This document shows positions 15,518-58,931 of a DNA stretch of 64,000 bases, piece after piece. Source of the stretch: Bacteroidia bacterium (lineage in GTDB: Bacteria > Bacteroidota > Bacteroidia > 2-12-FULL-35-15); assembly GCA_036399275.1 (NCBI GenBank), contig DASWNK010000104.1, positions 565 through 64,564 of the forward strand, written 5' to 3'. Positions within the stretch are counted from its first letter, which is position 1; every line of letters starts with the position of its first letter. The position numbers and the translations under genes are program-made. The notes beneath the pieces were generated by a model. That model saw nothing but the letters and a program-made list of their open reading frames with translations. It had not been told where the DNA came from and did no database searches.

Positions 15518-18016
15518 TTGAAAAAAATAGTCATATACGCCCGCTGTAAAACAACTTTGCTCATAGCAATGCTGATTTTTGTTTTTTCTGCTGCTGCTGT
15601 TGCTCAAACAACAAAAGTAAGTGGAAAGATTGTGGATGCGATTACGCGTGAGCCATTACCCTTCGTAAATATTATTTTTAAGGGAACTGCTATTGGAGGA
15701 ACTACAGACATAGAGGGGAATTATTCGATATTCACAACGCTTCCCGTTGATTCGGTTTCTATTTCTTATGTGGGTTACAATAAGCTTACAAGGGCGATCA
15801 GGAGAGGTGCTGTTCAGGAACTTAATCTTGGGCTCAGTCAAGGAGTAGATCTGGTGACGGTTGAGATTCGCCCGGGAGAGAATCCTGCTCACCGTATTCT
15901 TAGGAAAATTATTGCGAATAAAGAGAACAACGATCGCGAAGAGTTGGATGCTTACGAGTATGAAGTGTATAATAAAGTAGAATTCGATCTTAATAACCTG
16001 AGTGAAGATTTTAAAAACAATAAACTTCTTCAGCCTTTTTCTTTCATCTTCGATAATATCGATAGCACCAACGCTAAAGAGAAACCCTACCTGCCTGTTT
16101 TCATGACCGAAGCCTTAGCGGATTATTATTATCGCAAGAATCCAAAAGCTCGCAATGAAGTTATCAAGGCCAGTAAAGTGGCCGGCGTAGAGAATTCCAG
16201 TGTTTCCCAATTCATGGGCGACATGTATCAGAATGTAAATATTTACGACAATAATATTCTGGTTTTTGGGAAAAATTTTATCAGCCCTATTTCTGATAAT
16301 GCTTTGCTCTTTTATAAGTTTTACCTGATTGATAGTATGGTGATCGATGGTCATAAATGTTATCAGCTTCAGTTTAAACCGAAAAGAAAACAGGAATTGG
16401 CTTTTGTTGGGAATCTCTGGGCGGCCGATACTTCCTTTGCGATTAAACAAATTGAAATGAGCATTGCCGACGATGCGAATATTAATTTTATCAATACCAC
16501 ATCTGTTGTGCAAACGTATACGCAGGTTGATAGCGCATGGATGATGCAAAAAGAGCGATTGGTGATCGACTTTAATCCATTCCCTATTGAGCAAAAGAAA
16601 AAATCATTAATGGGCATTTACGGTCGAAAAACCGCTGATTATAGCAATTTTAAGATCAATCAGCCAAGAGCGGACGAGTTTTATTCCATTACCAATAATT
16701 TAAAAGTAAATGCAGATGCATTTCAGAAAGACGAAGCATTCTGGGTCGAGCATCGTCATGATACTTTGTCGAAAAACGAGCAGCAGATCTATAAAATGGT
16801 AGATACGCTTCAATCGTTGCCTGTTTATAAAACCTGGATAGATGTGATTCAGATCTTTGTAACAGGATATAAAATTAAAGGCAATTTCGAATATGGCCCG
16901 TACTATAATTTATTCAGTACGAATGAAATTGAAGGAAACCGTTTTCGCTTTGGCGGAAGAACAAGTAATCAGTTCAGTAAGTGGTACGAGCTGAGCGGAT
17001 ATGTGGCGTATGGTACACGCGATGAAAAGTTCAAATATAGTTTGGGCATACGGGCGTTCATTACCAAGAAGCCAAGAGTGATGGTGGGCATGTATTATAA
17101 AAACGATAATGAAATTCTGGGGCAGAGCCAGAATGGATTTACTACCGATAATATTCTTGCTTCTGTTTTCAGAATCACGCCTTTAAGAAATTTAACAAAT
17201 GTAAAGCAGGTTAATACTTACATTGAAAGAGAATGGTTTACCGGTTTCAATACCAAGCTGAGCTTTGTAAACAGAACGATGATGCCACTTGGCGCCTTCC
17301 ATTATGAGTATCAGAAAGCTCCGGGCAAAACTGCCTTCAAAGAAAATATTACTACCTCCGAAATTCGTTTCCTTGCACGGTTGGCTTACAATGAAAAATA
17401 CATAGAAGGACAATTTACGCGTGTAAGTCTTGGGACGCATTATCCGATTGTTCAGGCGCAATACACATTAGGCGTTAAAAATCTTTTTGCAAGCGATTAC
17501 AATTATCATAAATTAACGGTGAATGTGGATGACCGCATCCGTGTCAATCCCATCGGCTATTTTGATTACATCCTGGAATATGGAAAAACCTGGAATCCGC
17601 TGCCTTATCCATTGTTGACGCTTCATGGGGGAAATGAAACCTATATCTTTGATTTGTATGCATACAATGGAATGAATTATTATGAATTCGTGAGTGATGA
17701 ATATGCTTCTGCAACCATTTCTCATCATTTTGATGGCTTTTTCCTGAACCGTATTCCCCTGATGCGCAAATTAAAATGGCGGGAAGTAGTGGGCGCGAAA
17801 GCACTTGTGGGTAGAGTGAACGATGCGAATAAGAGTATGTTGATATTTCCTGAGCATTTGACTGCCCTGAATCGTGGTCCGTATTTTGAAGCAACCACAG
17901 GCATAGAAAATATATTTAAAGTATTTAGAGTGGATGCAGTCTGGCGCTTATCCTACCTGGATAATCCAAAAGCAATTCCATTCAGTATAAAAGCATCATT
18001 GCAGTTTACCTTTTAA
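15518..18016 (+). CDS. Carboxypeptidase-regulatory-like domain / DUF5686-type outer-membrane protein
   Basis: 832 aa with a TTG start and a signal peptide. The N-terminal motif [39 protein letters not shown] is CarboxypepD_reg-like. The long C-terminal region is rich in beta-strand patterns and ends in F. Confidence 0.6.
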
Positions 18017-20045: not shown

Positions 20046-20819
20046 TTAGTGTTCGCTTAGCTTAGTTTTATTCGTCATATTGTTAATGACCGATAAAACG
20101 ATGTACAAAAATATAATAAAAGGGATTGCAATGAACTGAAATAGTATTAACAAAATCACTGAAATTATTAAAAAAGAGTACCGGATCTTATTGTCAGGCC
20201 AGCCGAAGTTTTTGAATTTCAGAGCAAACAAGGGTAATTCCGCTATTAAGAGGTAGGACATAACTATTGTTAATCCGATCAATAAATAGGGATTCAATAG
20301 GAGGGTGTGGTATTTTCCGTAGCCATCTCTATGAAATTCAATGATCAATGGCAGAGAACAAATCAAAATAGTGTTTGCTGGTGTTGGTACTCCGATAAAA
20401 GAATCTGTTTGGCGGGTATCAATGTTGAATTTTGCCAGCCGGATACAGGAAAAGATGGTAATTAAGAATGCGGTGTAAGGCAGAAAAGGAGCAATCGTGC
20501 CAAAAAAAGTTGTATCCACAACGCCTTGAGAGAAGTAATTTTTATAATCGATACCTTGTTTAATTAAGTGGTACATCACCACTCCGGGAACAACACCAAA
20601 GGTTACCATATCCGCCAGAGAATCCAGTTGTTTTCCCATTTCGCCACCTACTTTTAACAAACGGGCAACAAATCCATCAAAGAAATCCAATACGGCCGCT
20701 AGACCTACCAGATAAGCACTCCAGGTGAGGTTCCCGTTAAATGCACAGACAATAGCCAGACAGCCGCAAAGCAAATTACTGCAGGTGATTGCATTGGGAA
20801 TGTGTTTTTTGATGCTCAT
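20046..20819 (-). CDS. pssA: CDP-diacylglycerol--serine O-phosphatidyltransferase
   Basis: 257 aa. CDP-alcohol phosphatidyltransferase motif DFFDGFVARLLKVGGEMGKQLDSLADMVTFG, and multiple TM helices. Confidence 0.85.
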   Translation of the reverse strand: MSIKKHIPNAITCSNLLCGCLAIVCAFNGNLTWSAYLVGLAAVLDFFDGFVARLLKVGGEMGKQLDSLADMVTFGVVPGVVMYHLIKQGIDYKNYFSQGVVDTTFFGTIAPFLPYTAFLITIFSCIRLAKFNIDTRQTDSFIGVPTPANTILICSLPLIIEFHRDGYGKYHTLLLNPYLLIGLTIVMSYLLIAELPLFALKFKNFGWPDNKIRYSFLIISVILLILFQFIAIPFIIFLYIVLSVINNMTNKTKLSEH

Positions 20820-20904: not shown

Positions 20905-22404
20905 GTGGATACATTGTTCCGCGGAAAAAACTTTTATTACCTTTATCCGATGCAATTGTTTTTGCCCATAGTATACCTGCTTGCCTTTCTATTCCTGATT
21001 TGGAAGTGGAAGTTTTTTGCATTTCAGGGTTTGTCAAAAAAGCAGCTTGTGCTACTCTTTTTAGTGAAAACAATAGCGGGTATGGCTGTTTTGCTCGTCT
21101 ACACCTATTATTATCCCAGTTCCGATTTCCATCTTTATTTTCGTGATAGTAAAACAATTGTTGATCATTTCTTTTCCGGAAGTTCGCATTTTGTTTTGCA
21201 GGGTTGGAATTCCAGTTTTGATGAGGCTTTTTTTAACAACTCAAGAGTGATCATTAGCATCAATGTACTGCTTCAGCTTTTTTCCTTCAATAATATCTTT
21301 GTCCATATATTATTCTTCTGTTTCTTCTCCTTCATCGGATTGACCGCTTTATATAAGGCCTTCCTGAAATACTTTCCTCAGAAAAATTTTCTTCTTGTAA
21401 TTGGAATTTATTTAGTCCCTTCGGTGCTTTTCTGGACAGCCGGGATCTATAAAGAAACCGTCAGCATTGCTTGTGTAGGACTCCTGATTTATACCTGCGA
21501 TTTTGGGCTGCAAAAGGCGTATTCAAGAGGGCAACTGCTTTTTACCGTTTTTTTAATCGTTGCCTTGTTTTTTGTAAAGATCCATGTAGCGGCTGCCATC
21601 ATTCCTTTATTAGCGGTAAATTATTTTTTTAGCCGTAGTGGTAATAAAAAGCTGGGATTAAAGTACTTGCTTGTTTTTCTTTCATTGCTGCTAATGGTTC
21701 ATCTATTATCAATAATAAGCGAAAAGAGCAATGTGTATAAAATGATTGCTGATAAACAGGCAAAAGCCATTAGTGAGGCCGAAGGGGGGATGTTTCTTCT
21801 GAACGACCGGAATTTTATCCGGGTAGATCATGGACATCCGGAAATATTGGAAATGCAATCCGACTCCAGTTTCAGGATAAAGAAGGGGAGTAGTTATTTA
21901 TCCTGGAAGCTGGATAATATGAGAGATACCAGCTTTATCAGTAATTCAACAGATTCTTCCGTTTTTCAGATGCACTATGCCATTATACCGGTTAAAACAG
22001 TGGTGAATGTTGATCGTTTGGAACCCTCTTTTTGGATAATTATGAAGAACCTTCCTTTTGCAATTGCCTGCGTTATTATCCAGCCTTCCATATTCAATAT
22101 TGCTAACGGCTTGCAACTGCTCGCTGCGGTAGAAAATATGTGGCTGATGCTTCTGATAATTTTAGCTCTTGTTTTCTTTGATAAAAAAATATTGAAGCAT
22201 AAGGAAATTGTATTTTTTAGCGTTTTTTTTGCTCTCATACAATTTGCGGAAATCGGATTAATGACTCCTGCAGTGGGCGCCATGGTAAGATACAAGGTTA
22301 CTGCTTTGCCTTTCCTTGTAACGGCATGTTTGCTATGCATCGACTTTCCTGCAATTGGAAGATTATTGATGAAACCTAAAAGTCCGGATTCTTATAAAGA
22401 ATAA
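20905..22404 (+). CDS. Polytopic membrane protein of unknown function (possibly GT-C-like or polymerase-like)
   Basis: 499 aa, roughly 10 or more hydrophobic helices plus a central soluble loop. The true start may be Met16 (20950). The 3' end overlaps the convergent GT-C gene by 29 nt. Confidence 0.5.
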   Translation: MDTLFRGKNFYYLYPMQLFLPIVYLLAFLFLIWKWKFFAFQGLSKKQLVLLFLVKTIAGMAVLLVYTYYYPSSDFHLYFRDSKTIVDHFFSGSSHFVLQGWNSSFDEAFFNNSRVIISINVLLQLFSFNNIFVHILFFCFFSFIGLTALYKAFLKYFPQKNFLLVIGIYLVPSVLFWTAGIYKETVSIACVGLLIYTCDFGLQKAYSRGQLLFTVFLIVALFFVKIHVAAAIIPLLAVNYFFSRSGNKKLGLKYLLVFLSLLLMVHLLSIISEKSNVYKMIADKQAKAISEAEGGMFLLNDRNFIRVDHGHPEILEMQSDSSFRIKKGSSYLSWKLDNMRDTSFISNSTDSSVFQMHYAIIPVKTVVNVDRLEPSFWIIMKNLPFAIACVIIQPSIFNIANGLQLLAAVENMWLMLLIILALVFFDKKILKHKEIVFFSVFFALIQFAEIGLMTPAVGAMVRYKVTALPFLVTACLLCIDFPAIGRLLMKPKSPDSYKE

Positions 22405-23761
22405 GAGTAACTTGTCCTTTACTGATTTTCTTTTCTTCTTTCCAGTTTCTTTTAATTTCTTCTATTGCCACCATCCTGCCCGAATTAATTACATTGCTGT
22501 ATAAAAAATAACGGAATTGATTTATAGAATGATTTTCAATATCGCTGTAAGCATAAGCTTTGTCTGATAATTTGGTATATCGTTCATCTTGCGTTAGCGG
22601 GAACTGACTGCCAATTTCTTTAGGAGCAATGTTACTGCTCTTTACATAGTCGTTCATTTCTTCCTCGGCACTGAAATATGGTAAAATTTTTAATGAGGCG
22701 TCCCAGGCATTTCCAAAACGTTGCGGATAAACAATGAAATTCCCGGCAATTAAACTCACCAAAATAAAGGCGACTACTACCCGTTTTGATTGCTTGTTTT
22801 TTATTTGCTCTATCAGGTAACAAACACCAAGGTTTAGCAATAAGAATACAACCAGGAAATATTTATGTCCGATCGGATTCCTGATCAGAAGCATGAATGC
22901 TGTTAATACGAATAGTGGAACCAAGATCGTTCGAAGTAATTTTTTCAATGAACCAGAATTTTCTTTTCTCAGTAGATAAATACTACCAGCAAGTAATACT
23001 GCCCAGAGTGTAAGGTGGCCTAAATCCAGGCTTTTCCAAATGATGTAAATAAACTGCCGGAACATCATGGCAGGGCCGGTAAACTCTTCCGCATTGTATT
23101 CTCTTTCCGGAGAAAAAAAATACCAGCCGGTTTGCTGTTCATGATAAAAAATCCAAAATCCTAAAATAATAGCCGCTGGAAAATAATTCAGAAGCATCCG
23201 AAACGAAAATCTTGAATTTATAGCAAGATCCAGGATGAACAAAGCAGCAGCCAGCATAATGCCGCGAATGCTGATCATGCATAAGGCTATCAATCCAATA
23301 GCGTATAGCAAGCGTTTGTTAGCGTATAGCGCGTAAAGGCAAAACAAAAAAAAGCAGGCAATGACGCAGTCGTATCCCATTAAAATGGATTGGGTAAGAA
23401 GTACCGGCTCAACGACTAATAGAAGCATTGCAAGAATGAGCGTACGCGGTTTTAAAAATTGTTTGGCAAGCTGAAAATAGCACCAGGCGATTCCGGCTAA
23501 GAAGGGAAGCATAGCCAGGTGAGCAACAGGCAAGTTTTTACCAAAGCATTTAAAAACTAATGTCAGATATGCCGAATATAAAGGAAATCCGCCTGTGTCG
23601 TAGTTCGGTTCAGCAATAAATCCATTGAATCCGTTTTCATAAAAATGAACTGATAATGCAGAAAAGAAAGTGCTGTCCCAAAAAAAGGGAATGCGCAAAC
23701 TGTATAAAGTGAGGAGAATAAAAAAGCCAAATACGGCCAAAAGAATTTTTTTATTCATCAT
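22376..23761 (-). CDS. GT-C fold membrane glycosyltransferase (ArnT/PMT_2, GT39/83-like)
   Basis: 461 aa. Roughly 10 or more TM helices precede a soluble C-terminal domain. N-terminal sequence: LRIPFFWDSTFFSALSVHFYENG ... GGFPLYSAYL. The start overlaps the upstream GT2 gene by 11 nt. Confidence 0.6.
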   Translation of the reverse strand: MMNKKILLAVFGFFILLTLYSLRIPFFWDSTFFSALSVHFYENGFNGFIAEPNYDTGGFPLYSAYLTLVFKCFGKNLPVAHLAMLPFLAGIAWCYFQLAKQFLKPRTLILAMLLLVVEPVLLTQSILMGYDCVIACFFLFCLYALYANKRLLYAIGLIALCMISIRGIMLAAALFILDLAINSRFSFRMLLNYFPAAIILGFWIFYHEQQTGWYFFSPEREYNAEEFTGPAMMFRQFIYIIWKSLDLGHLTLWAVLLAGSIYLLRKENSGSLKKLLRTILVPLFVLTAFMLLIRNPIGHKYFLVVFLLLNLGVCYLIEQIKNKQSKRVVVAFILVSLIAGNFIVYPQRFGNAWDASLKILPYFSAEEEMNDYVKSSNIAPKEIGSQFPLTQDERYTKLSDKAYAYSDIENHSINQFRYFLYSNVINSGRMVAIEEIKRNWKEEKKISKGQVTLILYKNPDF

Positions 23762-24689
23762 TACGGCTTCTAATAATTTCAGAAATGCTGTATTGAGGTT
23801 TGTTGTTAAGAGTAAGATACATTCTTCCGATGTATTCCCCGATGATCCCCAAGGTAATGAGAATTAAGCCCCCGAAAAAAATAATCAGAATCACCACTGT
23901 TGTCCAGCCTTCGATAAAATTTTCCGCGATAAAATAATCATAGCAATACTTTAACGCAAGACCAATTCCAACCAATGTTGCGATAATTCCCGCTATGGTA
24001 GCCAGACGTAAAGGCAATACAGAAAATCCCGTGAACAATTTCATGAATACGGATGCGGATTTCGATATGGTATAATTGCTTTTTCCGCTTAGGCGTGCCT
24101 GATGGTCAACATCAACCTGGCTTAGGTTCTGAGTGATGGTAAGCAGGATTCCATCTATATAGGGATATGGGCCTGCGAATTTTGCGATCTCGCTTACGGT
24201 TTGTTTGTTAATGATCTTGAATGGAGAAAGGTAAATGCCTTTTGGTTTTGAAACCAATAGTTCGGCAAACTTCCCATTGGCATTGCTTCCTGCATTCTTG
24301 ATCATGTTCTGCTTTTTGCTTCTGAAATTGGCAAAACAAACATCAAAACCTTTTTTACATTCTTCATATAGTTTTAAAATTGCATTCGGATCATGCTGCA
24401 GGTCATCATCCATAATTACGCAATAATTCCCCTTGCTAATGCGTAAGCCTGCAAGTAGCGCGTTGTCCTGCCCCGAATTCTTACGCAGGTTGATTCCTGT
24501 AATGGAAGGGTGATGATGTGCCAGTGAAATGATTTTTTTCCAGCTTTCATCCAAACTTCCATCGTTCACAAGAATTAGTTCATAGGATACGGAGAGATCA
24601 AGGGCCTCTGAAATGCGTTTACGCAGCTCATCCAGGATAGCTGCGCTGTTGTAAACCGGTATGACTATGCTTATTTCGATCTCTTTCAT
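23751..24689 (-). CDS. GT2 polyprenyl-phosphate glycosyltransferase (GtrB/ArnC-like)
   Basis: 312 aa. SIVIPVYNSAAILDEL, LVNDGSLDES, DxD motif IMDDDLQHDP, and two C-terminal TM helices (LPLRLATIAGIIATLVGIGLAL; VVILIIFFGGLILITLGIIGEYIGRMY). Confidence 0.8.
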   Translation of the reverse strand: MKEIEISIVIPVYNSAAILDELRKRISEALDLSVSYELILVNDGSLDESWKKIISLAHHHPSITGINLRKNSGQDNALLAGLRISKGNYCVIMDDDLQHDPNAILKLYEECKKGFDVCFANFRSKKQNMIKNAGSNANGKFAELLVSKPKGIYLSPFKIINKQTVSEIAKFAGPYPYIDGILLTITQNLSQVDVDHQARLSGKSNYTISKSASVFMKLFTGFSVLPLRLATIAGIIATLVGIGLALKYCYDYFIAENFIEGWTTVVILIIFFGGLILITLGIIGEYIGRMYLTLNNKPQYSISEIIRSRNDE

Positions 24690-25282
24690 TTGGTAATAAC
24701 AATGATCAGGTCTTTGTTCAATTGTTCGGCTATTCTGTAACTGAACTCCAGTTTTTTGCTTAAGGTGTTCAGCGTTTCAGTCAGCGTTTGTAAGTTAAAC
24801 CTGAAATGCTGCTCGTTCCCATTTATAGTGGCAGAAGCTTTTGCCAATTTACCAATAATTCCCTTACGTTCCGAAAGATTGATTACCGGCTCCGAAATGA
24901 TAATGGTTGGCGCGCAAAGCAGCATTTTTCTGAAAATATCAGGAAGATCATCCTTAAAATGATAAAGTGAACCTGCAATGATGCATGTATCCGCCTTTGG
25001 AAATTCAATTAGGTCTATAATATTTAATTTTTCTGCTTGAAAGCCTTTTTTTAGCGCATTTTCGACAAAATTGGCATGAATATCTATCCCTTTCCAGCTG
25101 ATTTGATTCTTTTTGCAATATTCTGCAAGAATGATGTCTCCAAAGCACAATTCCGTAACACTTTTGCCGGAAATATACTTGCTGATGACCTTGTATCGCC
25201 TGTAATAATTGCCTTTGTATAGCAAGGACATTACAAAGCGGTAATAATGGATATTTGTATATATGAAACTGCTTTTGCTCAA
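24686..25282 (-). CDS. Putative class I SAM-dependent methyltransferase
   Basis: 198 aa from a TTG start (alternative ATG start at 25231). Motif I-like VTELCFGDI, GIDI, and motif II-like ADTCIIAGSLYHF. ATGA overlap with the downstream GT2 gene. Confidence 0.45.
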   Translation of the reverse strand: MSKSSFIYTNIHYYRFVMSLLYKGNYYRRYKVISKYISGKSVTELCFGDIILAEYCKKNQISWKGIDIHANFVENALKKGFQAEKLNIIDLIEFPKADTCIIAGSLYHFKDDLPDIFRKMLLCAPTIIISEPVINLSERKGIIGKLAKASATINGNEQHFRFNLQTLTETLNTLSKKLEFSYRIAEQLNKDLIIVITK

Positions 25283-25437: not shown

Positions 25438-26517
25438 ATGAACAAGAGATTTACTGCCACTTCAGTCGTTTTTTTAAGTCTGCTTTCCCATATTTATGCA
25501 CAGGCTCCTAAATACAGCAATGAGTTTTTGAGCATTGGAGTAGGAGCAAGGGCGCTAGGGATGTCCAATTCCTATGTTACCTCCGTAAATGATGTTACAG
25601 CCGGTTACTGGAACCCTGCCGGGTTATTGGGAATCAAAAATCAACACCAGGTGGCATTGATGCACAGCGAGTATTTTGCCGGCATTGCCAAATATGATTA
25701 CGGCGCTTTTGCCACGCGGTTGGATTCTTCCAGTGTGTTGGGCATTAGTTTGGTTCGTTTTGGAGTAGATGATATTCCGAATACCACCGAATTAATCGAT
25801 GCCAATGGAAATGTCGATTACGACAGGATTACCACCTTTTCGGCCGTAGATTATGCCTTCATGGTTTCTTATGCCAAGCAATTAAAAATTCCCGGTCTTA
25901 GGTTGGGAGGAAGCGCAAAAGTGATCCGCAGAAAAGTGGGCGACTTTGCCGGAGCATGGGGCTTTGGCCTGGATGCAGGCGCTCAGTATGATTATAAAAA
26001 GTGGAAATTTGCTGCAATGGCACGCGATGTAACCTCTACCTTCAATGCCTGGAGTTTTAACCTGAGCGAAGAAACCAAACAAGTATTTCTTGCCACAGGA
26101 AATGAGATCCCTGAAAATTCAGTAGAAATTACTTTACCCAAATTGCTTCTTGGCGCTGCCCGCAAGTTTGATTTTACTGAGAAGATTTCTCTGTTAGCGG
26201 AAATCGATCTTGATGCGACCTTCGATGGAAAGAGAAACGTTCTTATAAAAAGCAAGGCGGTAAGCATGGATCCTCATATGGGATTAGAAGCTTCTTACAT
26301 GAATATGATCTTTCTGAGAGGCGGAATAGGAAATTTTCAGACGTATACAGATGCGCTGGGGAAAAATATTAAAACCTTTCAGCCGAACATTGGCGTAGGG
26401 GTGAAAATTAAATCTGTTTACATTGATTATGCCTTAACGGATATTGGTGATCAGTCAGTTGCTCTGTACTCAAATGTATTTTCCATAAAAGTGGATATCA
26501 ATAAAAAGGTCAAATGA
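25438..26517 (+). CDS. PorV/PorQ-family outer-membrane beta-barrel protein, paralog of PorV (PorV2-like)
   Basis: 359 aa with a signal peptide (…SHIYAQA). Its N-terminal motif aligns with the canonical PorV in this window: FLSIGVGARALGMSNSYVTSVNDVTAGYWNPAGL versus FLLITPDSRSGGMGDAGVASLNDMNAVHWNASKL. The rest shows alternating beta-strand patterns to the C-terminus. The stop overlaps the next gene's start (ATGA). Confidence 0.7.
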   Translation: MNKRFTATSVVFLSLLSHIYAQAPKYSNEFLSIGVGARALGMSNSYVTSVNDVTAGYWNPAGLLGIKNQHQVALMHSEYFAGIAKYDYGAFATRLDSSSVLGISLVRFGVDDIPNTTELIDANGNVDYDRITTFSAVDYAFMVSYAKQLKIPGLRLGGSAKVIRRKVGDFAGAWGFGLDAGAQYDYKKWKFAAMARDVTSTFNAWSFNLSEETKQVFLATGNEIPENSVEITLPKLLLGAARKFDFTEKISLLAEIDLDATFDGKRNVLIKSKAVSMDPHMGLEASYMNMIFLRGGIGNFQTYTDALGKNIKTFQPNIGVGVKIKSVYIDYALTDIGDQSVALYSNVFSIKVDINKKVK

Positions 26518-29500
26518 TCAAACGCTTACTTGTTGTATGTATCCTTCTTCTAAGCACTCTCCTGGAAGTGAAGTCGCAGACATATGGCAATGAGTGGATT
26601 AATTACTCTCAAAATTATTATAAAATAAAAATTGCTAAAAACGGTGTTTATCGCATCGACTCTTTAACTATGGCAAGCGCAGGGATTCCAGTCGGCCCCG
26701 GCGGGATAGATCCGAATAACTTTCAACTCTTCAACAAAGGCGCACAGCAAAAAATATATATTGAGGGTGAAAGCGACGGTGTTTTCAATTCTTCCGACTT
26801 CATTGAGTTTTATGCTGAAAAAAATGACGGCACGCTGGATTCATTGCTGTATATAAATTATAGCTTCCTCCCGAATCCATACTATAGTCTCATTAATGAT
26901 ACTGCAGTTTATTACCTCACCTGGAATTCCTCTGTGACGAATAGCCGCATGAGTGTTGAGCCGGTCAGCTCCTTCGCCGGATTTTCTCCCGATAATTATT
27001 TCTTTAAAGATGAAGTTTTGGAATTGCATTCTGGATATTATGAAGGACAAACGGATTACGTGGGAAGTACCGATTCCCGCTACACAAAGTCCGAAGGATG
27101 GTTCGATGGAAATGTGATCGATCTTGGTAATTCGGCTGTTTATGGGCTGAATACTCCCAACGCATTTCTTTCTGGTCCGAATGCTACAATAAAATCAGTC
27201 GTGCTTGGTGCTTCCAAAGATCCTAACATTCTTGGAAATGACCATGAGCTCAAGATTGAATTAAATACTGGTTTATTAGTCGACACTACTTTCCTGGGGT
27301 ATGAAGCCAATCGCTTTATTTACAATGTTCCTGTTTCGATGCTTTCGTCTTCCAATACCTTTAAATTTACAAGTGTGAATTCCGGATTTACTTCCAACCG
27401 CACTGTGGTTTCTTATATCAACGTGAAATATCCCCACACGTTTGACCTGGAAGGGAAAAATGAATTTCTGTTATACGTTCCGGAGAATTCCATCCAACCA
27501 AAATCTTTCTTGACTATCAGTAATTTCAATGCGACAGGAAATACTCATTTATATGACCTCACGAATGGAAAACGAATTGACGTAGTTCAAAATGGAACGC
27601 TAGACAGTGTGTTGGTAGCGAACAGTCTTGGAGAAAAAAAATGTTATATCACTTCCGATGGTTTTATAAATGCGATTGCTTCTTTGCAGCCGGTAACGCC
27701 TTCCGCCAAATTTACCGACTTCTCAACGTTTGCTGTTGATTCTGCTTATGTTATTGTGACCCATAAATCCTTGATGACTGAAGCCTTGGATTATAAGATC
27801 TACCGTAATGCAAATATGTATGGAGGAAATCACAACGTAATAATTGCAGACATCGACGAGCTGTATGATCAGTTTGCTTACGGAATTGCAAAAAGTCCAT
27901 TGTCTGTCAGAGGCTTCTCTAACTATTTATTGAACACTTATCCGTCAGCGCCTCAAAATTTATTTCTGATTGGAAAAGGGTACCATATGCAATTGTCAAG
28001 AAATAATGCAACCTTTTATGCGGCTGATCTTGTGCCTTCTTTTGGAAATCCTTCCAGTGATAATTTACTGACTGCGGGGCTAACTGGTGGCGTTGTTGAA
28101 CCAAGCATTCCTACCGGAAGGCTGGCAGCTTCAATGCCGGCAGAAGTGAGTATTTATTTAGATAAGATCAAGCAATACGAAGATCGCTCTACCAACCCGC
28201 CGGCGGAATGGATGAAGCATATTCTGCATTTCGGCGGAGGAACCACTTCTTTGGAACAAACCAACTTCAAAACGTATCTCAATGGTTATAAAGCTACCCT
28301 GGAAGATACTTTGTTCGGAGGATATGTAAGCGACTTTTTCAAAACAAGCTCAGCTCCAATACAGATCAACACTTCGGATACCTTGCGGACATTTATGAAT
28401 GAGGGCGTTTCAATCATGACATTTTTCGGACATGCGTCTGCAAGCGGTTTTGATCAGAGTATTGACGATATCAATTCCTATAATCCGACACCCGGACATT
28501 ATCCTTTTATGCTTACCAACGGCTGCTATTCCGGAGATATACATTCCTATGAACGCTCTACATCCGAGAATTATGTGATCAATCAAAATCGAGGAATGAT
28601 CGGCTACCTGGCATCTGTTGGTTTGGGGGTTCCTCATGCGCTTAATGCTTTTTCCTCCCAATTCTATAAACAAACATCTCTTACCAATTATGGGAAGAGT
28701 GTAGGAAGCAATATTAAACGGACTGTTGGATTTATCGAATTATCATCCCTCGCCGATCCGGTAATGATGTCGGTATGCAATGAAATGACTTTGCATGGCG
28801 ATCCGGCTCTCATCATTAATGCCCATGAAAATCCCGATTATCGGATCACGAATAATGATGTGTATTTTGACTTGACATCAGAAGTAGATACTTTTACTAT
28901 CTATGCGGTTCGTACCAATCTCGGTAGAGCCTCAGGAGATACCATTTTTACTGAAGCGTTAAGAACTTTCCCTGATGGAAACACACAGAGTTATAAAATA
29001 TTTACACCGGCTCCCAGGTTCAAAGATACAGTCGCTATTAGAATACCGTTTGATTTTTCGAGGGACATAGGGCTCAATAAAGTCAGAATCACGTTGGATT
29101 TTTTTAACCGTGTAGATGAACTGGATGAAACAAACAATTCCACTTCTCCTGATATTAATTTTATTATTATTGGTGGAGATGTGGTTCCTGTTTATCCTTA
29201 TCAATTTGCCATCATTCCAAAAGATACGGTTACATTAAAAGCATCAACAACTGATCTGTTTGCGCCTTCCCGTACTTATGTATTCCAGATCGATACTACC
29301 GATTCGTTTTTAAATCCGCTGGATACAGGTATGGTGACAGCAATTGGCGGCGTCATTAGCTGGAAACCTTCCTTTAATTTCAGTGACACAGTCGTTTATT
29401 ATTTGCGAGTAAGTCCTGATTCCATTTCCCCAACCAGCGGCTACAAATGGCGCGAAAGCTCTTTTCAATATATTGCCGGGAAACGCGGTTGGGAGCAAGC

Positions 29501-31559
29501 CCACTTTTTTCAATTTAAAGATAATGACTATGAATATGTAAAATACAATCGTCCTTTGCGGCAATTTGAATTCGCGGATGATTTTAAAAATCTGCAATGT
29601 AAAGATGGATTGTCTCCATACATCAGTTGGATCGACGTAGCGTATAAAATCAATGGAAGCCTCGAATATGTTTCCAGTTGGGCAATTCCCGGCTTCACCA
29701 TCGCCGTCTTTAATCCAGTGAGTAATATTTCTGTTAAATCAATTGCACAGGGTCCTGCAATCGGACTGTCACAATTTGGAAGCGTTACTTATGCGGCTGC
29801 AGGGACGGAAGAAAATGCCTGTGATTTTTTTGATAGAGATTTTTCTTCTCCGTCTTCTCCCTATCTTGATTCTGTTGCACGAGCAAAAATCACAAACTTT
29901 ATTCAAAATGACATTCCCCTGGGATACAATGTTTTGGCCTATACACAGGAAAATCATTCCATTCCATCCTACGAAGAAGATTTATATCAGGCTTTTGAGA
30001 TGTTGGGAAGCACTAAAATCAGAACAGTGCCTGCTCAAAGGTCCTATATTCTATTTGGTAAAAAAACAACAGGTGGCATCATCCCTGCAAAGGAAATAAT
30101 TGCTGATTCGATTAATTCGATCATTCAATTGGATACGGCTTTGATTAGCAATTGGGATGAAGGTTCTATTTCTTCTCCGGTGATCGGCCCTGCATTGAGC
30201 TGGGATTCTTTATCATGGAAACAACACACGCTCGATGGAACAACAACCGATGATAGCATTGTCGTAAGGCTGATCGGAATAAAAACAAATGGAACAGAAG
30301 ATGTGCTTAAAAATTTCACAACTACTGAGTTAAACGTTGGAAACTTAGGCATCTATGCGCCAGCCAGCACTTATCCAAGAGTAAGGATGGTTGCCTATAT
30401 GAAAGACAATACCTTGAATACGCCTCCCCAGCTGGATCGCTGGCAGATCATTTATACGCCGGTTCCAGAAGGGGCAATTAATCCTCCACTGGGTTATTCT
30501 GCCATTGATACTGTTCAGGAAGGCGACAATGTTGTAATTCAACTGCCTTTTCAGAACATCAGCGAATATTCCTTTAACGACAGTTTGCTGGTTACCTATT
30601 GGATAGAAGATGCCAACCGTGTTAATCATCCCTTGTCCTCCAAATTAAAGAAGAACCTGCTTGCACCAAACGAAGTGATCATCGATACTGTTAATGTTAA
30701 TACTGCTTCTTATCCCGGAAGTAATGTTTTGTGGGTGGAGGTAAATCCCTTAGATCCTATGGATACACTTGATCAGCCGAAAACACAGCTGGAACAATAT
30801 CACTTTAATAATATTGCCCGTATTCCTTTTCAGGTAACCACAGATAAAATTAATCCCCTGCTGGATGTAACCTTCGATGGTGTACATATTCTGAACAGCG
30901 ATATCATTTCCTCCAAACCGAATATACTTGTTCAGTTGAAAGATGAAAATCAATTTTTGGCCCTCAACGATACTGGTGATTTCAAATTGTTTTTGCAGTC
31001 GCCCTCTTCCGGGATTGCACAGCGGATTTATTTCGGTACGATGATGTCCTTCATTCCCGCAGTATTACCAAGCAATAGCTGTAAAATAAATTTCACTCCT
31101 ACACTTTACGAGGATGGCAAATATCAGTTAATTGTTCAGGCAAAAGATAAATCCGATAACCAGTCCGGTGCAATCGATTACAAGATCAGTTTTGAAGTGA
31201 TCAACAAAGCTACCATTACTGAAGTGATGAATTATCCAAATCCCTTCTCTACCGCAACCCATTTTGTTTTTACACTTACCGGTTCAGAAGTGCCGACGTA
31301 TTTTAAAATTCAAATACTAACCGTTACCGGAAAGGTAGTAAAGGAAATTACCAATGATGAGCTCGGCTTGATCCACATTGGACGAAATGTGACGGATTAT
31401 GCCTGGAACGGCAGGGATGAATTCGGCGATCAGCTCGCAAACGGAGTTTATCTTTACAGGGTGGTAACAACCTTAAATGGTGATAACATAGAAAAACGCG
31501 GAACTGCAGCCGACCAGTATTTCAAAAAAGGATTTGGAAAAATGTACTTGATGCGCTAG
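26514..31559 (+). CDS. PorU-like C25 (gingipain-family) cysteine peptidase with T9SS type-A-like C-terminal domain (PorU2-like putative sortase)
   Basis: 1681 aa with a signal peptide. It aligns with the canonical PorU in this window at three places. His: IMTFFGHASASG versus IMNYTGHGGEVG. Cys: FMLTNGCYSGD versus FFTATCEFSRFD. C-terminal domain: NYPNPFSTATHFVF...WNGRDEFGDQLANGVYLYRV versus NYPNPFTTKTQFYF...WDGRDDFGDKIGKGVYIYRI. Confidence 0.75.
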   Translation: MIKRLLVVCILLLSTLLEVKSQTYGNEWINYSQNYYKIKIAKNGVYRIDSLTMASAGIPVGPGGIDPNNFQLFNKGAQQKIYIEGESDGVFNSSDFIEFYAEKNDGTLDSLLYINYSFLPNPYYSLINDTAVYYLTWNSSVTNSRMSVEPVSSFAGFSPDNYFFKDEVLELHSGYYEGQTDYVGSTDSRYTKSEGWFDGNVIDLGNSAVYGLNTPNAFLSGPNATIKSVVLGASKDPNILGNDHELKIELNTGLLVDTTFLGYEANRFIYNVPVSMLSSSNTFKFTSVNSGFTSNRTVVSYINVKYPHTFDLEGKNEFLLYVPENSIQPKSFLTISNFNATGNTHLYDLTNGKRIDVVQNGTLDSVLVANSLGEKKCYITSDGFINAIASLQPVTPSAKFTDFSTFAVDSAYVIVTHKSLMTEALDYKIYRNANMYGGNHNVIIADIDELYDQFAYGIAKSPLSVRGFSNYLLNTYPSAPQNLFLIGKGYHMQLSRNNATFYAADLVPSFGNPSSDNLLTAGLTGGVVEPSIPTGRLAASMPAEVSIYLDKIKQYEDRSTNPPAEWMKHILHFGGGTTSLEQTNFKTYLNGYKATLEDTLFGGYVSDFFKTSSAPIQINTSDTLRTFMNEGVSIMTFFGHASASGFDQSIDDINSYNPTPGHYPFMLTNGCYSGDIHSYERSTSENYVINQNRGMIGYLASVGLGVPHALNAFSSQFYKQTSLTNYGKSVGSNIKRTVGFIELSSLADPVMMSVCNEMTLHGDPALIINAHENPDYRITNNDVYFDLTSEVDTFTIYAVRTNLGRASGDTIFTEALRTFPDGNTQSYKIFTPAPRFKDTVAIRIPFDFSRDIGLNKVRITLDFFNRVDELDETNNSTSPDINFIIIGGDVVPVYPYQFAIIPKDTVTLKASTTDLFAPSRTYVFQIDTTDSFLNPLDTGMVTAIGGVISWKPSFNFSDTVVYYLRVSPDSISPTSGYKWRESSFQYIAGKRGWEQAHFFQFKDNDYEYVKYNRPLRQFEFADDFKNLQCKDGLSPYISWIDVAYKINGSLEYVSSWAIPGFTIAVFNPVSNISVKSIAQGPAIGLSQFGSVTYAAAGTEENACDFFDRDFSSPSSPYLDSVARAKITNFIQNDIPLGYNVLAYTQENHSIPSYEEDLYQAFEMLGSTKIRTVPAQRSYILFGKKTTGGIIPAKEIIADSINSIIQLDTALISNWDEGSISSPVIGPALSWDSLSWKQHTLDGTTTDDSIVVRLIGIKTNGTEDVLKNFTTTELNVGNLGIYAPASTYPRVRMVAYMKDNTLNTPPQLDRWQIIYTPVPEGAINPPLGYSAIDTVQEGDNVVIQLPFQNISEYSFNDSLLVTYWIEDANRVNHPLSSKLKKNLLAPNEVIIDTVNVNTASYPGSNVLWVEVNPLDPMDTLDQPKTQLEQYHFNNIARIPFQVTTDKINPLLDVTFDGVHILNSDIISSKPNILVQLKDENQFLALNDTGDFKLFLQSPSSGIAQRIYFGTMMSFIPAVLPSNSCKINFTPTLYEDGKYQLIVQAKDKSDNQSGAIDYKISFEVINKATITEVMNYPNPFSTATHFVFTLTGSEVPTYFKIQILTVTGKVVKEITNDELGLIHIGRNVTDYAWNGRDEFGDQLANGVYLYRVVTTLNGDNIEKRGTAADQYFKKGFGKMYLMR

Positions 31560-31619: not shown

Positions 31620-32246
31620 ATGTTCAAAATGAAATTTCCGGTACCTCTTCTCATAGCCGTTTTATGCTGTTCCGGAAAAATGTCTGCGCAATCGAACGCA
31701 TTTAGACAGTTTAAAAGTCTCTCCTGCCCGGAAAAAAGCTGGGTTATTTTCCATCCTTTCAAGGCAAAAAAGGCGCAGCGGATCACTAAAGAAGTACAAT
31801 TATTTGTTGATTCCGTTAAACAAATAGGAATAATTGGTGTTGATAATAACGGAGGGAAATTGGATGCATTCAAGCATGCCTTTTGGATGGCACGATTAAC
31901 AAAAGCCATCGGCGCACGAAGGACGAGGAAATTAGGGAGAGCTCATGAAAAGGGAAATTACATTCAATTTAAAAAACATGAATTAGAAGATAGTGCATTG
32001 CCTGATTCAATTAGTTCTGAAATGGATCTGAGGAACAATGAGATCGGTATTTCGAGAGCGAAACAAATCGCCGTTGGATCCCTAAGCGCTTCTTTACTTA
32101 AATTGGCGGAAGAGGGTTGTTTGTTTACCATCAAAAAAGATGAAAATGGAAACTTTCTGAATTGCGACGGATCCATTCTTTCGATAAAGGACTGGTATGG
32201 CAAATGGAATATTCCTAAATGTTTAGTTTCACCTTCCTGCCATTGA
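31620..32246 (+). CDS. Hypothetical secreted protein with conserved-looking His/Glu motifs (possibly DUF6973-like)
   Basis: 208 aa with a signal peptide (…CCSGKMSAQS). Motifs: CPEKSWVIFHPFKA, GGKLDAFKHAFWMARL, RAHEKG, EMDLRNNEIG. The family assignment is from memory only. Confidence 0.45.
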   Translation: MFKMKFPVPLLIAVLCCSGKMSAQSNAFRQFKSLSCPEKSWVIFHPFKAKKAQRITKEVQLFVDSVKQIGIIGVDNNGGKLDAFKHAFWMARLTKAIGARRTRKLGRAHEKGNYIQFKKHELEDSALPDSISSEMDLRNNEIGISRAKQIAVGSLSASLLKLAEEGCLFTIKKDENGNFLNCDGSILSIKDWYGKWNIPKCLVSPSCH

Positions 32247-32275: not shown

Positions 32276-33871
32276 GTGAAAAAATACCATCTATATTTAT
32301 TGTCTCTGCTCAGTGGTGTATTATTGAGTTTTTCCTGGTTTCCTAACGGATTGCTTCCTCTGTTATTCATTGCATTCATTCCCTTGCTGATGGTGGAGAA
32401 TGTTATTTCTCAGCATCCTCAGCAGTATAAAGTTTCACTTTTCCTTTGCAGCTATCTTACCTTTTTTACCTGGAATATCCTCACAACCTGGTGGCTGAAG
32501 AATGCTTCAATTGGTGGGGCAGTGATGGCGATCTTCCTTAATGCGTTGATCATGGCTTTTTTCTTTTCTCTCTTTCACAGGGTAAAAAAACGCATCGGCA
32601 AATGGAGCGGAGTTTTATTTATCTGCTTTTGGGTTGGCTTCGAATACATACACATTAACTGGGATCTTAGCTGGTCATGGCTCACAATTGGAAATGCTTT
32701 TGCGAATGTCCCGGATATAGTTCAATGGTATGAATACACGGGCGTGCTCGGAGGAAGTACATGGGTGCTGCTCATTAATGTATTGATATTTACTCTGATT
32801 TTAAATTTTAAACGCTACAGTTCAAAAATAAAAATGCGTTTTGCAGCGCTTCTTTTATGCCTCCTCATCATTCCACTGATCATTTCCTTTTTTGTTGGTA
32901 GATCTGCAACCCGCTTTGATGAAGGCTCTGTAAAAACGGTTATCATTCAACCCAATATCGATCCGTACAACGAGAAATTCTTTGATTCTTTTGAAGAGCA
33001 ATTAGTAAAAATGCTCTCGCTCGCTGCACCTGAAGTGGACTCAACTACTGAATACCTGATTTTTCCTGAGACAGCATTAACGGAAAGTATCTGGGAGGAA
33101 TCTCTCGGAGAAAGCCGGAGCTTGCAAATACTGAGTGATTTTCTAAAAAAATATCCCCGTCTCAAAATTGTCGCGGGCGCTACAACACTAAAGAGTTTTT
33201 CTTCCTCGGAAGAGCTTTCGGAAACAGCACGTAAATCGGGAGACGGCTATTACGACATCTTTAATACTGCCATACAGTTGGATAGTAGTAAGACTATTCA
33301 GATCTATCACAAATCAAAACTCGTTCCTGGCGTGGAAACCATGCCTCTGCAATTTATTTTCAAGCATTTTGAAAGCCTGGCAATTGATCTGGGTGGAACA
33401 GTTGGCAGCCAGGGCATACAGAAAGAACGTGCTGTTTTAGCTTCTAGTGATGAGCGAATGAAGGCGGCTCCCGTGATCTGCTATGAAAGCATCTTCGGAG
33501 AATATGTAACCGAATATGTAAAGAACGGCGCAAATTTTATTGCCATTATTACTAATGACGGCTGGTGGGGAGATACACCGGGTTACAAGCAGCATTTGCA
33601 ATACGGGCGACTCCGTGCTATTGAGAACCGCAGGTGGATAGCGCGTTCTGCTAATACAGGGGTTTCCTGTTTCATTACGCCTTCTGGTAAAATCCTGCAG
33701 GCAACCGACTATTGGGTACCTGCAGTAATTGTTGGAAACATAGGCCTTAATAACGAATTAACCTTTTATAGCAAGTTTGGGGATTACCTGGGGCGCATTG
33801 CCATGTATACAGCTTTTCTGCTCCTCATTTATTCGTTGCTGATTCGCTTCAACATTATTAAAAAAGTGTAA
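32276..33871 (+). CDS. lnt: Apolipoprotein N-acyltransferase
   Basis: 531 aa with a GTG start. The N-terminal region is polytopic. The C-terminal CN-hydrolase domain carries the E/K/C triad contexts YLIFPETAL, YHKSKLVPGVE and PVICYESIF. Confidence 0.85.
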   Translation: MKKYHLYLLSLLSGVLLSFSWFPNGLLPLLFIAFIPLLMVENVISQHPQQYKVSLFLCSYLTFFTWNILTTWWLKNASIGGAVMAIFLNALIMAFFFSLFHRVKKRIGKWSGVLFICFWVGFEYIHINWDLSWSWLTIGNAFANVPDIVQWYEYTGVLGGSTWVLLINVLIFTLILNFKRYSSKIKMRFAALLLCLLIIPLIISFFVGRSATRFDEGSVKTVIIQPNIDPYNEKFFDSFEEQLVKMLSLAAPEVDSTTEYLIFPETALTESIWEESLGESRSLQILSDFLKKYPRLKIVAGATTLKSFSSSEELSETARKSGDGYYDIFNTAIQLDSSKTIQIYHKSKLVPGVETMPLQFIFKHFESLAIDLGGTVGSQGIQKERAVLASSDERMKAAPVICYESIFGEYVTEYVKNGANFIAIITNDGWWGDTPGYKQHLQYGRLRAIENRRWIARSANTGVSCFITPSGKILQATDYWVPAVIVGNIGLNNELTFYSKFGDYLGRIAMYTAFLLLIYSLLIRFNIIKKV

Positions 33872-56161: not shown

Positions 56162-57691
56162 TTATCTTCCTAATCCTACAGGGCTACCAACACGTGTCAT
56201 AGCGCAACGGAAACCGATCCATGCAGTTGACTGACGTTGATCCAGGTAGCGTCTTGTTCCAGGAACCATCCAATAAGCACGGTCTTTCCATGAACCACCT
56301 TTATAAACACGAGCTTTATCGTTGATCATAGAAGTGTTACCATATTCGTACATTCCGCTAGATTCAGGCTTTCCTGTTGTAGCATCAAATTCAGTCCAGG
56401 TTCCGCCGTTTAATCCTACAGCTTGCGATTGAACATCACCATCCAGGTAATTGATGTTATCAGCATATTTGTAATTTCTTCTTTCGTCCAGGTTATCATC
56501 AGGAATTGCAGGGCTTACATCTCTCCAGCGAACCATACCTGGTATTGAAATGATATTACTGTCAGCATCATACTTAATTGTATCACTGATTACAATACCG
56601 TCTTCATTGCGTTCTTGTGTTTTGAATACGTTACCACGGAATGGGCGGAAATCCGCTTTATCTTCCGGAGAAAGTGGACGATAAACATCCATTACCCATT
56701 CGGAAACGTTACCTGCCATGTTGTACAAGCCATAGTCATTCGGCCAATAAGAGAACACAGGAGTTGTAATATCCCCGGCATCGTTCAAACGACCAGCATT
56801 ACCCATCATATCACCATTACTACGCTGGTAGTTAGCTAACATTTGTCCTAAGTATTTTGAATCAGGGTTACGGGTACCGTGTCCGTTCCAAGGATATAAT
56901 CTTCTGTCGGTAATACGCTCACCAATAGTGTTACCAATTAAGCCATAAGCAGCATATTCCCACTCAGCTTCTGTCGGTAGGCGGTAGCGAGGTAAAAAGA
57001 TACCGTCTTCCATTCTTACCAAACGATCACCGCCGTTAGGGTCCATGTTAGGGATAGGGTTTTTAACAGCTCCTGTCCATTTTCCGGCAAGGTACTGATC
57101 TGTATTGAAATAATCGTTTTCAGTAGGAGTAGGTGCATAATCAAGGATACCCTCACGAACAAGGATAAATTCGTTAACGCGGTCAGTACGCCAAGCACAG
57201 AAATCGGATGCCTGTAACCAATTCACACCAACCACAGGGTAATCTCTGTAAGACGGGTGACGTAAATAATATTCTACGTACGGTTCGTTATATGCTAAAC
57301 GATCACGCCATACTAAACTGTCAGGAGTTGCTTTTTTAACTACATCAGGAAAATTGGCAGAAAACACCCTTGATGTCCAATGCAAATATTCAAGGTAATC
57401 AAGGTTACGCACCTCTGTCTGATCCATATAAAAAGAAGAAACTGTTACTCTTCTAGGAATAGCATTCCATTCATATGTTACATCTTGCTCCGCTCTTCCC
57501 ATTGTAAAAGTACCACCTTCTACCAAGATCAATCCCGGTCCGGTTTCTTGCTCTTCGTAGGGTCCAACTTCAAATCCTCCGTTTCTAGGTTCGTTATACT
57601 CCCATGCTGTAACTGGAGATCTCTCTTTGGTACAAGATGCAAGGGCAATAATACCTGCTAGTGCGATAAATTTGCTTGATGCTTTTTTCAT
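56162..57691 (-). CDS. gldJ: Gliding motility lipoprotein GldJ (FGE/SUMF1-like fold)
   Basis: 509 aa with lipoprotein signal IALASC. SUMF1-like motifs: GGTFTMG...VTVSSFYMDQTEV, NVSEWVMD, RVYKGGSWKD. I prefer GldJ over GldK because no gldLMN genes follow it and it neighbours porU/porV. Confidence 0.75.
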   Translation of the reverse strand: MKKASSKFIALAGIIALASCTKERSPVTAWEYNEPRNGGFEVGPYEEQETGPGLILVEGGTFTMGRAEQDVTYEWNAIPRRVTVSSFYMDQTEVRNLDYLEYLHWTSRVFSANFPDVVKKATPDSLVWRDRLAYNEPYVEYYLRHPSYRDYPVVGVNWLQASDFCAWRTDRVNEFILVREGILDYAPTPTENDYFNTDQYLAGKWTGAVKNPIPNMDPNGGDRLVRMEDGIFLPRYRLPTEAEWEYAAYGLIGNTIGERITDRRLYPWNGHGTRNPDSKYLGQMLANYQRSNGDMMGNAGRLNDAGDITTPVFSYWPNDYGLYNMAGNVSEWVMDVYRPLSPEDKADFRPFRGNVFKTQERNEDGIVISDTIKYDADSNIISIPGMVRWRDVSPAIPDDNLDERRNYKYADNINYLDGDVQSQAVGLNGGTWTEFDATTGKPESSGMYEYGNTSMINDKARVYKGGSWKDRAYWMVPGTRRYLDQRQSTAWIGFRCAMTRVGSPVGLGR

Positions 57692-58924: not shown

Positions 58925-58931
58925 AAATCTA

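Follow-up and report, generated by a model that had tools for sequence, protein, structure and literature searches.

PorV2 and PorU2: a second PorV/PorQ-family barrel and PorU-like C25 peptidase pair in a Bacteroidia genome

The window analysed here (64,000 nucleotides of contig DASWNK010000104.1, assembly GCA_036399275.1, from a Bacteroidia bacterium) encodes two barrel and peptidase pairs. Besides the canonical type IX secretion system (T9SS) proteins PorU and PorV, it carries a distinct and widespread pair consisting of an outer-membrane β-barrel of the PorV/PorQ family (359 amino acids (aa), PorV2) and, translationally coupled to it, a paralogue of PorU whose active site is intact (1681 aa, PorU2). 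A second, separately located pair of this kind had been proposed in a preliminary description of the window, and its existence is borne out by curated family models. The reading of the pair that is developed below, and that we regard as about an even call, is that PorU2 is exported by the T9SS, is held on the cell surface by PorV2 through a C-terminal domain that is not cleaved off, and acts there as a C25 peptidase, possibly as a sortase. The coordinates of all features are collated in Table 1.

Family assignment of the two proteins

Both open reading frames lie exactly where they had first been placed, with the ATGA junction between them, and the sequence motifs quoted at that time are all present. 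Each protein starts with a Sec signal peptide of 21 residues, the cleavage sites of which were inferred from the sequence. The mature N-terminus of PorV2 would be Gln22, which is invariant in the orthologue alignment, and Gln22 of PorU2, directly after its signal peptide, is nearly invariant among the orthologues. The PorV-type motif that had been pointed out near the N-terminus of the barrel begins at residue 30; its YWNP is invariant across 81 orthologues, and the segment aligns with PorV of Flavobacterium johnsoniae (6H3I_F) and with the PorV of the window. The G+C content of porV2-porU2 is the same as that of the rest of the window. A scan for sigma-70 promoters and terminators gave signals at or below shuffle expectation; Bacteroidota use other promoters.

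PorV2 was matched by the equivalog model NF052325 ("putative type IX sorting system protein PorV2", PorVQ2) with 530.6 bits over residues 16-355 (E = 1.6e-159; curated cut-off 325 bits). PorU2 was matched by NF052324 ("putative type IX secretion system sortase PorU2", PorU_rel_Nterm), an equivalog_domain hidden Markov model (HMM) of 879 N-terminal positions with a curated cut-off of 450 bits, with 757.4 bits over residues 5-875 (E = 2.1e-227); an 880-aa fragment alone gave 760 bits. The barrel also passes the cut-off of the PorV/PorQ superfamily (NF033709, 109.4 vs 90 bits, residues 29-353), remains under those of PorQ (NF033711, 68.5 vs 220 bits) and PorV (NF033710, 38.7 vs 250 bits), and is borderline for Pfam PF19572 (26.1 bits, gathering score 27). 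The peptidase likewise remains under the cut-off for canonical PorU (NF033707, T9SS_sortase, 193.2 vs 420 bits), and Pfam Peptidase_C25 (PF01364) covers its residues 412-766 with 174.8 bits (gathering score 23, E = 4.1e-51). In the reverse direction, the canonical PorU of the window scores 1373.6 bits on NF033707 and 178 bits on the PorU2 model, and the canonical PorV 432.5 bits on NF033710 and 22.8 bits on the PorV2 model. These reciprocal cut-offs set the PorU2 family apart from PorU and from cargo proteases of the gingipain type, as had been supposed. The earlier designation of the barrel as PorV-like holds for the PorV/PorQ superfamily and fails for PorV specifically, the score on the PorV model being lower than that on the PorQ model.

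The assignment, including the failure at the PorV, PorQ, and PorU cut-offs, extends to the orthologues tested. All 81 PorV2 orthologues reach E ≤ 1e-97 on NF052325, a value that corresponds to about 325 bits when scaled from the score of the window protein, and all 48 PorU2 orthologues match NF052324 at E ≤ 1e-5. Because members with as little as 32% identity keep 240-375 bits on the PorV2 model and no more than 60 bits on those of PorQ and PorV (41-60 bits for PorQ), the PorV2 family is a discrete clade that lies consistently nearer to PorQ than to PorV. The names PorU2 and PorV2, given as provisional in the preliminary description, therefore exist as NF052324 and NF052325 and apply here. Since the family is already curated and named, and the names already stand on some NCBI and UniRef records, the novelty of the pair had been put too high; it is known as an annotation, and the window adds another member to a curated family. 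The NCBI records of the two window proteins, from a Bacteroidia metagenome-assembled genome (MAG), read "PorV/PorQ family protein" and "C25 family cysteine peptidase".

Table 1. Features of the porV2-porU2 pair, of the canonical T9SS genes, and of neighbouring genes in the window.
Feature	Coordinates	Strand	Remarks
porV2	25438-26517	+	359-aa outer-membrane β-barrel, PorV/PorQ family; NF052325, putative PorV2
PorV2 Sec signal peptide, residues 1-21	25438-25500	+	MNKRFTATSVVFLSLLSHIYA, followed by QAPKY; cleavage site inferred from sequence
PorV/PorQ-family N-terminal motif, PorV2 residues 30-63	25525-25626	+	FLSIGVGARALGMSNSYVTSVNDVTAGYWNPAGL
ATGA overlap, porV2 stop and porU2 start	26514-26517	+	read from sequence
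porU2	26514-31559	+	1681-aa PorU-like C25 cysteine peptidase; NF052324, putative T9SS sortase PorU2
PorU2 Sec signal peptide, residues 1-21	26514-26576	+	MIKRLLVVCILLLSTLLEVKS, followed by QTYGNEW; cleavage site inferred from sequence
PorU-like N-terminal region, PorU2 residues 22-411	26577-27746	+	BLASTP block 22-102
Peptidase_C25 catalytic domain, PorU2 residues 412-766	27747-28811	+	Pfam PF01364
Catalytic His640	28431-28433	+	in IMTFFGHASASG; codon CAT
Catalytic Cys671	28524-28526	+	in FMLTNGCYSGD; codon TGC
PorU2-specific extension, residues 876-1443	29139-30842	+	β-sandwich chain and one α/β domain
Conserved patch in the extension, residues ~961-1000	29394-29513	+	within ...YYLRVSPDS...GYKWRESSFQYIAGKRGWEQAHFFQF
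Weak ILEI/PANDER-like domain, PorU2 residues 1123-1184	29880-30065	+	PF15711, E = 0.00097, 20 bits, gathering score 27
Penultimate β-sandwich domain common to PorU, PorU2 residues 1444-1565	30843-31208	+	BLASTP
T9SS C-terminal-domain-like module, PorU2 residues 1566-1681	31209-31556	+	~116 aa
GldJ	56162-57691	-
PorP/SprF	57770-58753	-	TIGR03519
Canonical long-form PorU (comparator)	58932-62831	+	NF033707 above cut-off
Canonical PorV (comparator)	62867-64000	+	runs past window end; NF033710 above cut-off
832-aa CarboxypepD_reg-like and DUF5686 protein	15518-18016	+	between tatC and lptB
pssA-like CDP-diacylglycerol-serine O-phosphatidyltransferase	20046-20819	-
Lineage-specific insertion	20905-25282		separates pssA from porV2
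Small secreted DUF6973 protein	31620-32246	+	between porU2 and lnt
lnt (apolipoprotein N-acyltransferase)	32276-33871	+	just downstream of porU2
Type B T9SS C-terminal-domain protein	39624-41453	-	609 aa, PKD domains

Active site and architecture of PorU2, and the PorV2 barrel

The catalytic pair of PorU2, His640 and Cys671, is equivalent to His806 and Cys840 of the window PorU and is invariant when the window protein and 48 full-length orthologues are aligned by MAFFT (n = 49). When the family profile of the C25 region was searched against the PDB, the best match was PorU of Porphyromonas gingivalis (6ZA2, E = 1.9e-16, 63 bits), and the gingipains RgpB (1CVR, E = 8.8e-9) and Kgp (4RBM, 4TKX) were also matched, with at most 38 bits. 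In the profile columns His640 falls on RgpB His211 and Cys671 on RgpB Cys244 (residue numbers obtained by counting along the printed 1CVR chain), the gingipain catalytic pair, and the two residues also fall on the active-site residues of P. gingivalis PorU. The family profile was required for this comparison; phmmer with full-length PorU2 against the PDB gave zero matches. The dyad named in the preliminary description is upheld by this alignment and by its invariance.

Three collinear blocks were obtained when PorU2 was compared with the window PorU by BLASTP: PorU2 residues 22-102 with PorU 172-266, 409-783 with 546-946, and 1444-1661 with 1080-1291, the last at 29% identity. The lack of the N-terminal extension of PorU, already noted, was confirmed in that residue 22 of PorU2 starts against residue 172 of PorU; the roughly 150-aa "long-form" N-terminal domain is absent, NF052318 matching only the canonical PorU (residues 5-157). 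The segment between the core and the last two domains measures about 650 aa in PorU2 vs about 135 aa in PorU. The figure of about 380 aa that had been given for the additional length downstream of the core has to be corrected: 382 aa is the difference in total length, and the excess after the core amounts to about 530-545 aa. Orthologues keep a length of 1592-1737 aa.

The extension is found in all full-length PorU2 orthologues, and BLASTP gives no counterpart in PorU. An AlphaFold2 (AF2) model of residues 876-1681, with a mean predicted local distance difference test score (pLDDT) of 80.4, shows a chain of β-sandwiches and one α/β domain, and the α/β segment coincides with the weak ILEI/PANDER match, which is also precomputed for many PorU2 orthologues. 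A Foldseek search with this 806-aa C-terminal model returned generic matches to proteins with multiple immunoglobulin-like (Ig-like) domains alone, at template modelling (TM) scores below 0.2, and thus gave no hint of what the extension does. Within the extension, eight residues of one patch (V961, R965, S983, F984, G992, W993, Q995, and Q1000) are each at least 98% conserved, and neither a family nor a structural match accounts for this conservation.

The C-terminal module aligns with the C-terminal domain of the window PorU in BLASTP, and the PorU-like C-terminal domain that had been claimed is supported by the collinearity of the third block. The family profile further gives a weak alignment of the module to residues 1042-1138 of P. 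gingivalis PorU (6ZA2), a segment that largely overlaps the non-cleaved C-terminal domain of that protein; a weak Pfam match to FlgD_ig was recorded as well. At the C-terminus of PorU2 no match to the type B model TIGR04131 was listed at E ≤ 0.01; the same model does detect the window protein at 39624-41453.

PorV2 shares 26% identity with the window PorV, across only 139 N-terminal residues. The family profile gave F. johnsoniae PorV as the sole match in the PDB, and this match was weak (E = 0.018). An AF2 model of PorV2, computed from a shallow alignment (≥78% identity), has about 14-16 strands (pLDDT 54.5, predicted TM score 0.56). With this low-confidence model Foldseek returned F. johnsoniae PorV (8GL6_F) first (E = 1e-8, TM 0.5), and FadL and BamG next. 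The β-barrel assembly machinery (BAM) complex of Bacteroidota contains BamG as an essential FadL-like barrel (PMC12578637). A BamG identity for PorV2 was considered and rejected at the sequence level, a match to Pfam Toluene_X/FadL being absent at E ≤ 0.01.

Pairing, conservation, and genomic neighbourhood

A PorV2-based scan with one genome per species gave at least 600 matches, of which the best 80 loci were taken; 79 of them were testable. PorU2 lies directly downstream of PorV2 and on the same strand in 66 of the 79, the 66th pair (L016) having been added by inspection. The 65 pairs that were counted automatically have intergenic distances of -8 to 124 nt, with the 4-nt overlap in 28. In an independent scan of metagenomes that started from PorU2, 71 of the 73 testable loci had PorV2 as the gene immediately upstream (97%). 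The sole exceptions, L150:1142-6109 and L156:3941-8869, encode a full-length PorU2 with no PorV2 before it, and no PorV2 remnant was found at either by tblastn. Because 71 of 73 PorU2 loci have PorV2 and 66 of 79 PorV2 loci have PorU2, the dependence is asymmetric: PorU2 occurs almost never without PorV2. The PorV2 loci with no neighbouring PorU2 are L003, L005, L015, L044, L045, L048, L057, L060, L062, L073, L074, L079, and L080; at L003 the order is pssA, porV2, lnt, and porU2 is absent from that position.

The adjacency that had been suggested as a check was found across hundreds of genomes, and the pair occurs in at least several hundred species-level genomes. Among the carriers are MAGs of the Vicingaceae, Cryomorphaceae, Crocinitomicaceae, and Parvicellaceae and, in culture, Fulvivirga spp. 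and Rhodocytophaga aerolata. In a library of 1.84 billion proteins the PorV2 family comprises 254 clusters at 50% identity (E ≤ 1e-30). PorV2 sequences from different families are 56-91% identical, which is unusually high for an outer-membrane barrel. Regional conservation, taken as mean pairwise identity among 49 species, is highest in the C-terminal domain of PorU2 (0.64), followed by PorV2 (0.56), the penultimate domain of PorU2 (0.52), its C25 core (0.41), and the rest of PorU2 (0.33-0.36). PorV2 and the C-terminal domain of PorU2, the most conserved parts, would be the likely interface between the two proteins.

The pair is embedded among housekeeping envelope genes, the order, which only nearer relatives share, being tatC, DUF5686, lptB, pssA, porV2, porU2, lnt, lpd, hemH. 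Cytophagales loci have a PspC-domain gene and a histidine kinase in place of this envelope-gene neighbourhood, and in two of them (L065, L076) the pair is the only neighbourhood shared; the porV2-porU2 pair itself is the conserved unit. The pssA-like gene is typically the divergent upstream neighbour of PorV2, being present at 53 of 80 genome loci and at 29 of 80 metagenome loci (4-kb flanks), and is absent from the Cytophagales loci examined. Its proximity recalls sortase systems that anchor proteins to ethanolamine lipids. A functional link of the pair to pssA or lnt was considered and downgraded to inherited synteny, because the synteny weakens as relatives become more distant and is missing from Cytophagales; the pssA-PorV2 neighbourhood is probably inherited in this way. 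The downstream gene lnt is present at 19 of 80 genome loci, and the DUF6973 gene that precedes it in the window occurs in the closest relatives only. The arrangement of tatC, the 832-aa protein, which is probably an outer-membrane protein, and lptB is conserved in 30 of 80 loci.

In the window, pssA and porV2 are separated by an insertion that encodes a 499-aa protein with about 12 transmembrane segments on the forward strand and, on the reverse strand, a 461-aa protein (about 7 transmembrane segments), an ArnC/PgfS-like family 2 glycosyltransferase that ends in two transmembrane segments, and a soluble protein of 198 aa. The insertion looks like a cassette for polyprenyl-phosphate-sugar glycan or lipid modification. 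The complete block was found only in the nearest relatives listed (L001 and L002), and its individual genes in 2-5 of 80 genome loci. At 56162-64000 lies the block of canonical T9SS and gliding genes, with GldJ, PorP/SprF, long-form PorU, and PorV. The type B protein reported earlier at 39624-41453 was confirmed by TIGR04131 (44.9 bits) and CHU_C (82 bits).

Proposed function and comparison with known systems

The pair is paralogous to the PorV-PorU half of the T9SS attachment complex, and the following course of events is proposed. PorV2 and PorU2 would cross the inner membrane by the Sec route, as their signal peptides suggest, and in the outer membrane PorV2 would form a PorV/PorQ-family barrel with the FadL fold. 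PorU2 would be exported by the T9SS by means of its C-terminal domain, which would not be removed afterwards and would serve as the handle by which PorV2 retains the enzyme on the surface, in the manner of PorV-PorU and PorQ-PorZ. PorU and PorZ keep long C-terminal domains (96-108 aa) that are not cleaved off and by which PorV and PorQ hold them (PMC11285876, PMC10202324). About 650 aa of β-sandwich domains would then lie at the surface between this handle and the gingipain-type His640/Cys671 centre, and PorU2 would be an active surface peptidase. The substrates would most likely be a subset of T9SS cargo, the C-terminal domains of which PorU2 might cleave or even transpeptidate; this putative sortase role is speculative and the least supported step of the proposal.

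The principal competitor, which we consider possible and clearly less probable than the proposal above, is that PorU2 is itself cargo. The T9SS would secrete it as a surface protease or adhesin with a long β-sandwich stalk, and PorV2 would be a dedicated anchor only, like SprF for SprB and PorQ for PorZ; the substrates of PorU2 would be environmental or host proteins and not other T9SS cargo with its C-terminal domains. A signal peptide, a C-terminal domain, and some 650 aa of Ig-like β-sandwich domains, features typical of surface proteins, are present in PorU2, which also gives weak CARDB and PANDER-like matches. Adjacent genes for a barrel and its client are a known T9SS theme (PMC9143113), and on the family models the barrel comes closer to PorQ, a static anchor, than to PorV. 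The homology of PorU2 to PorU, however, exceeds that to the gingipains and reaches beyond the C25 domain, and the conserved length and housekeeping context across hundreds of genomes are not those of an accessory gene or of a polysaccharide-utilization locus. The C-terminal domains of cargo proteins are normally poorly conserved in sequence; that of PorU2, contrary to ordinary cargo, is the most conserved region of the protein. A role of the pair as machinery is favoured only modestly, by the homology specific to PorU, the uniform length of the orthologues, the housekeeping setting, and the conservation of the C-terminal domain.

Several observations weigh against the proposed retention of an active PorU2 on PorV2. 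The C-terminal module remains below the threshold of the type A model TIGR04183 (18.4 vs 23 bits, E = 0.0015, residues 1574-1653), and the fold match of PorV2 to PorV is only indicative, the model being of low confidence. PorV2 lacks an adjacent PorU2 in 13 of the 79 genome loci and still scores there at the E-value equivalent of the NF052325 cut-off; because it is found in this way and is much more conserved than PorU2, PorV2 may have a role of its own. Neither an experimental nor a comparative paper on PorU2/PorV2 was found in the literature searched, and the available evidence fits the processing of T9SS cargo and a simple surface protease alike.

An independent role of the barrel could be taken further, with PorV2 as an envelope-biogenesis or lipid-transport barrel like BamG or FadL and PorU2 as its facultative passenger. 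The high identity of PorV2 across families, its occurrence apart from PorU2, the neighbours tatC, lptB, pssA, and lnt, and the presence of FadL and of BamG from Bacteroides thetaiotaomicron (9HIV_F) among the top Foldseek matches would suit such a role. We nevertheless judge it quite unlikely: the Pfam Toluene_X/FadL match is absent, PorV is the only PDB sequence match and the best structural one, the PorV/PorQ family cut-off is passed, 97% of the PorU2 genes lie directly after PorV2, and the Cytophagales lose the envelope-gene synteny and keep the pair.

A dedication to type B cargo, as raised in the preliminary description, would make PorV2 a second shuttle that docks on the SprA/Sov translocon and PorU2 the C-terminal-domain peptidase or sortase of type B proteins. 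The window does encode one such protein, and the pair is paralogous to PorV-PorU. PorP/SprF-like barrels, however, anchor type B cargo independently of PorU and PorV (PMC9143113), and a PorP/SprF gene is present in the window; the C-terminal domain of PorU2 resembles the type-A-like one of PorU; and no positional link of the pair to any type B gene was seen in the 160 loci examined. The idea is therefore disfavoured, and we regard it as very improbable. The shuttle function proposed for PorV2 is also weaker than had been claimed, the barrel being closer to PorQ (static anchor) than to PorV (shuttle).

A more far-reaching proposal, which we think unlikely, is that PorU2 and PorV2 form a self-contained second attachment machine, in which dedicated cargo is ligated to an acceptor other than that of PorU (a pssA-type aminophospholipid or a glycan) and the extension of PorU2 presents this acceptor in cis and so replaces PorZ. 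If this were true, one candidate acceptor would be an aminophospholipid made through the pssA-like gene, the divergent neighbour in most loci outside the Cytophagales, and the PANDER-like domain would sit in the acceptor-presenting extension. The anchoring of proteins to ethanolamine lipids by archaeosortase and rhombosortase systems is an analogue of this idea.

PorU-PorV, the C-terminal signal peptidase or sortase with its barrel in the attachment complex of P. gingivalis and F. johnsoniae (PDB 6ZA2, 6H3I, 8GL6), agrees with the new pair in the C25 core and its His/Cys dyad, in the collinear N-terminal block, penultimate domain, and long C-terminal domain, in the PorV/PorQ-family barrel, and in the adjacency of the two genes. 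The new pair differs in that both proteins fail the canonical equivalog cut-offs, that their identity to the canonical proteins is 20-29%, that the barrel gene comes first with a 4-nt overlap (porU precedes porV in the canonical pair here), that the long-form N-terminal domain is missing from PorU2, whose sequence after the core is longer by about 530 residues, and that the barrel is nearer to PorQ. With PorZ-PorQ, the other half of the attachment complex, it shares this preference for the PorQ model, together with the proposed static anchor and retained C-terminal domain (PMC10202324, PMC11285876); the PorQ cut-off is, however, missed, and the client of PorV2 is a C25 peptidase and not a protein of the PorZ type that presents anionic lipopolysaccharide (A-LPS). 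As in SprB-SprF and PG1035-PorP, in which type B clients are combined with PorP-like barrels, a barrel gene adjoins that of a dedicated T9SS client (PMC9143113), but PorV2 lies outside the PorP/SprF family, TIGR03519 matching the other gene at 57770-58753, and the type B model is not among the matches listed for the C-terminal domain of PorU2. Among C25 cargo proteases, the gingipains RgpB and Kgp have the catalytic fold and dyad of PorU2, match its profile much less well than PorU does (38 vs 63 bits), and lack PorU-type flanking domains and a barrel gene as partner; the C-terminal domain of gingipains is short and is cleaved off (PMC11285876), and the module of PorU2 measures about 116 aa.

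PorU2 is a second PorU-like enzyme; its active site is intact, and the barrel dedicated to it is extremely conserved. The enzyme has been neglected in experiments, possibly because it is missing from the usual model organisms; its role is directly testable, since culturable carriers exist among Fulvivirga spp. and in Rhodocytophaga aerolata. The attachment step of the T9SS is understood almost only from P. gingivalis. For the many environmental Bacteroidota without anchoring of the A-LPS type, PorU2/PorV2 could in part explain how cargo is kept or released.

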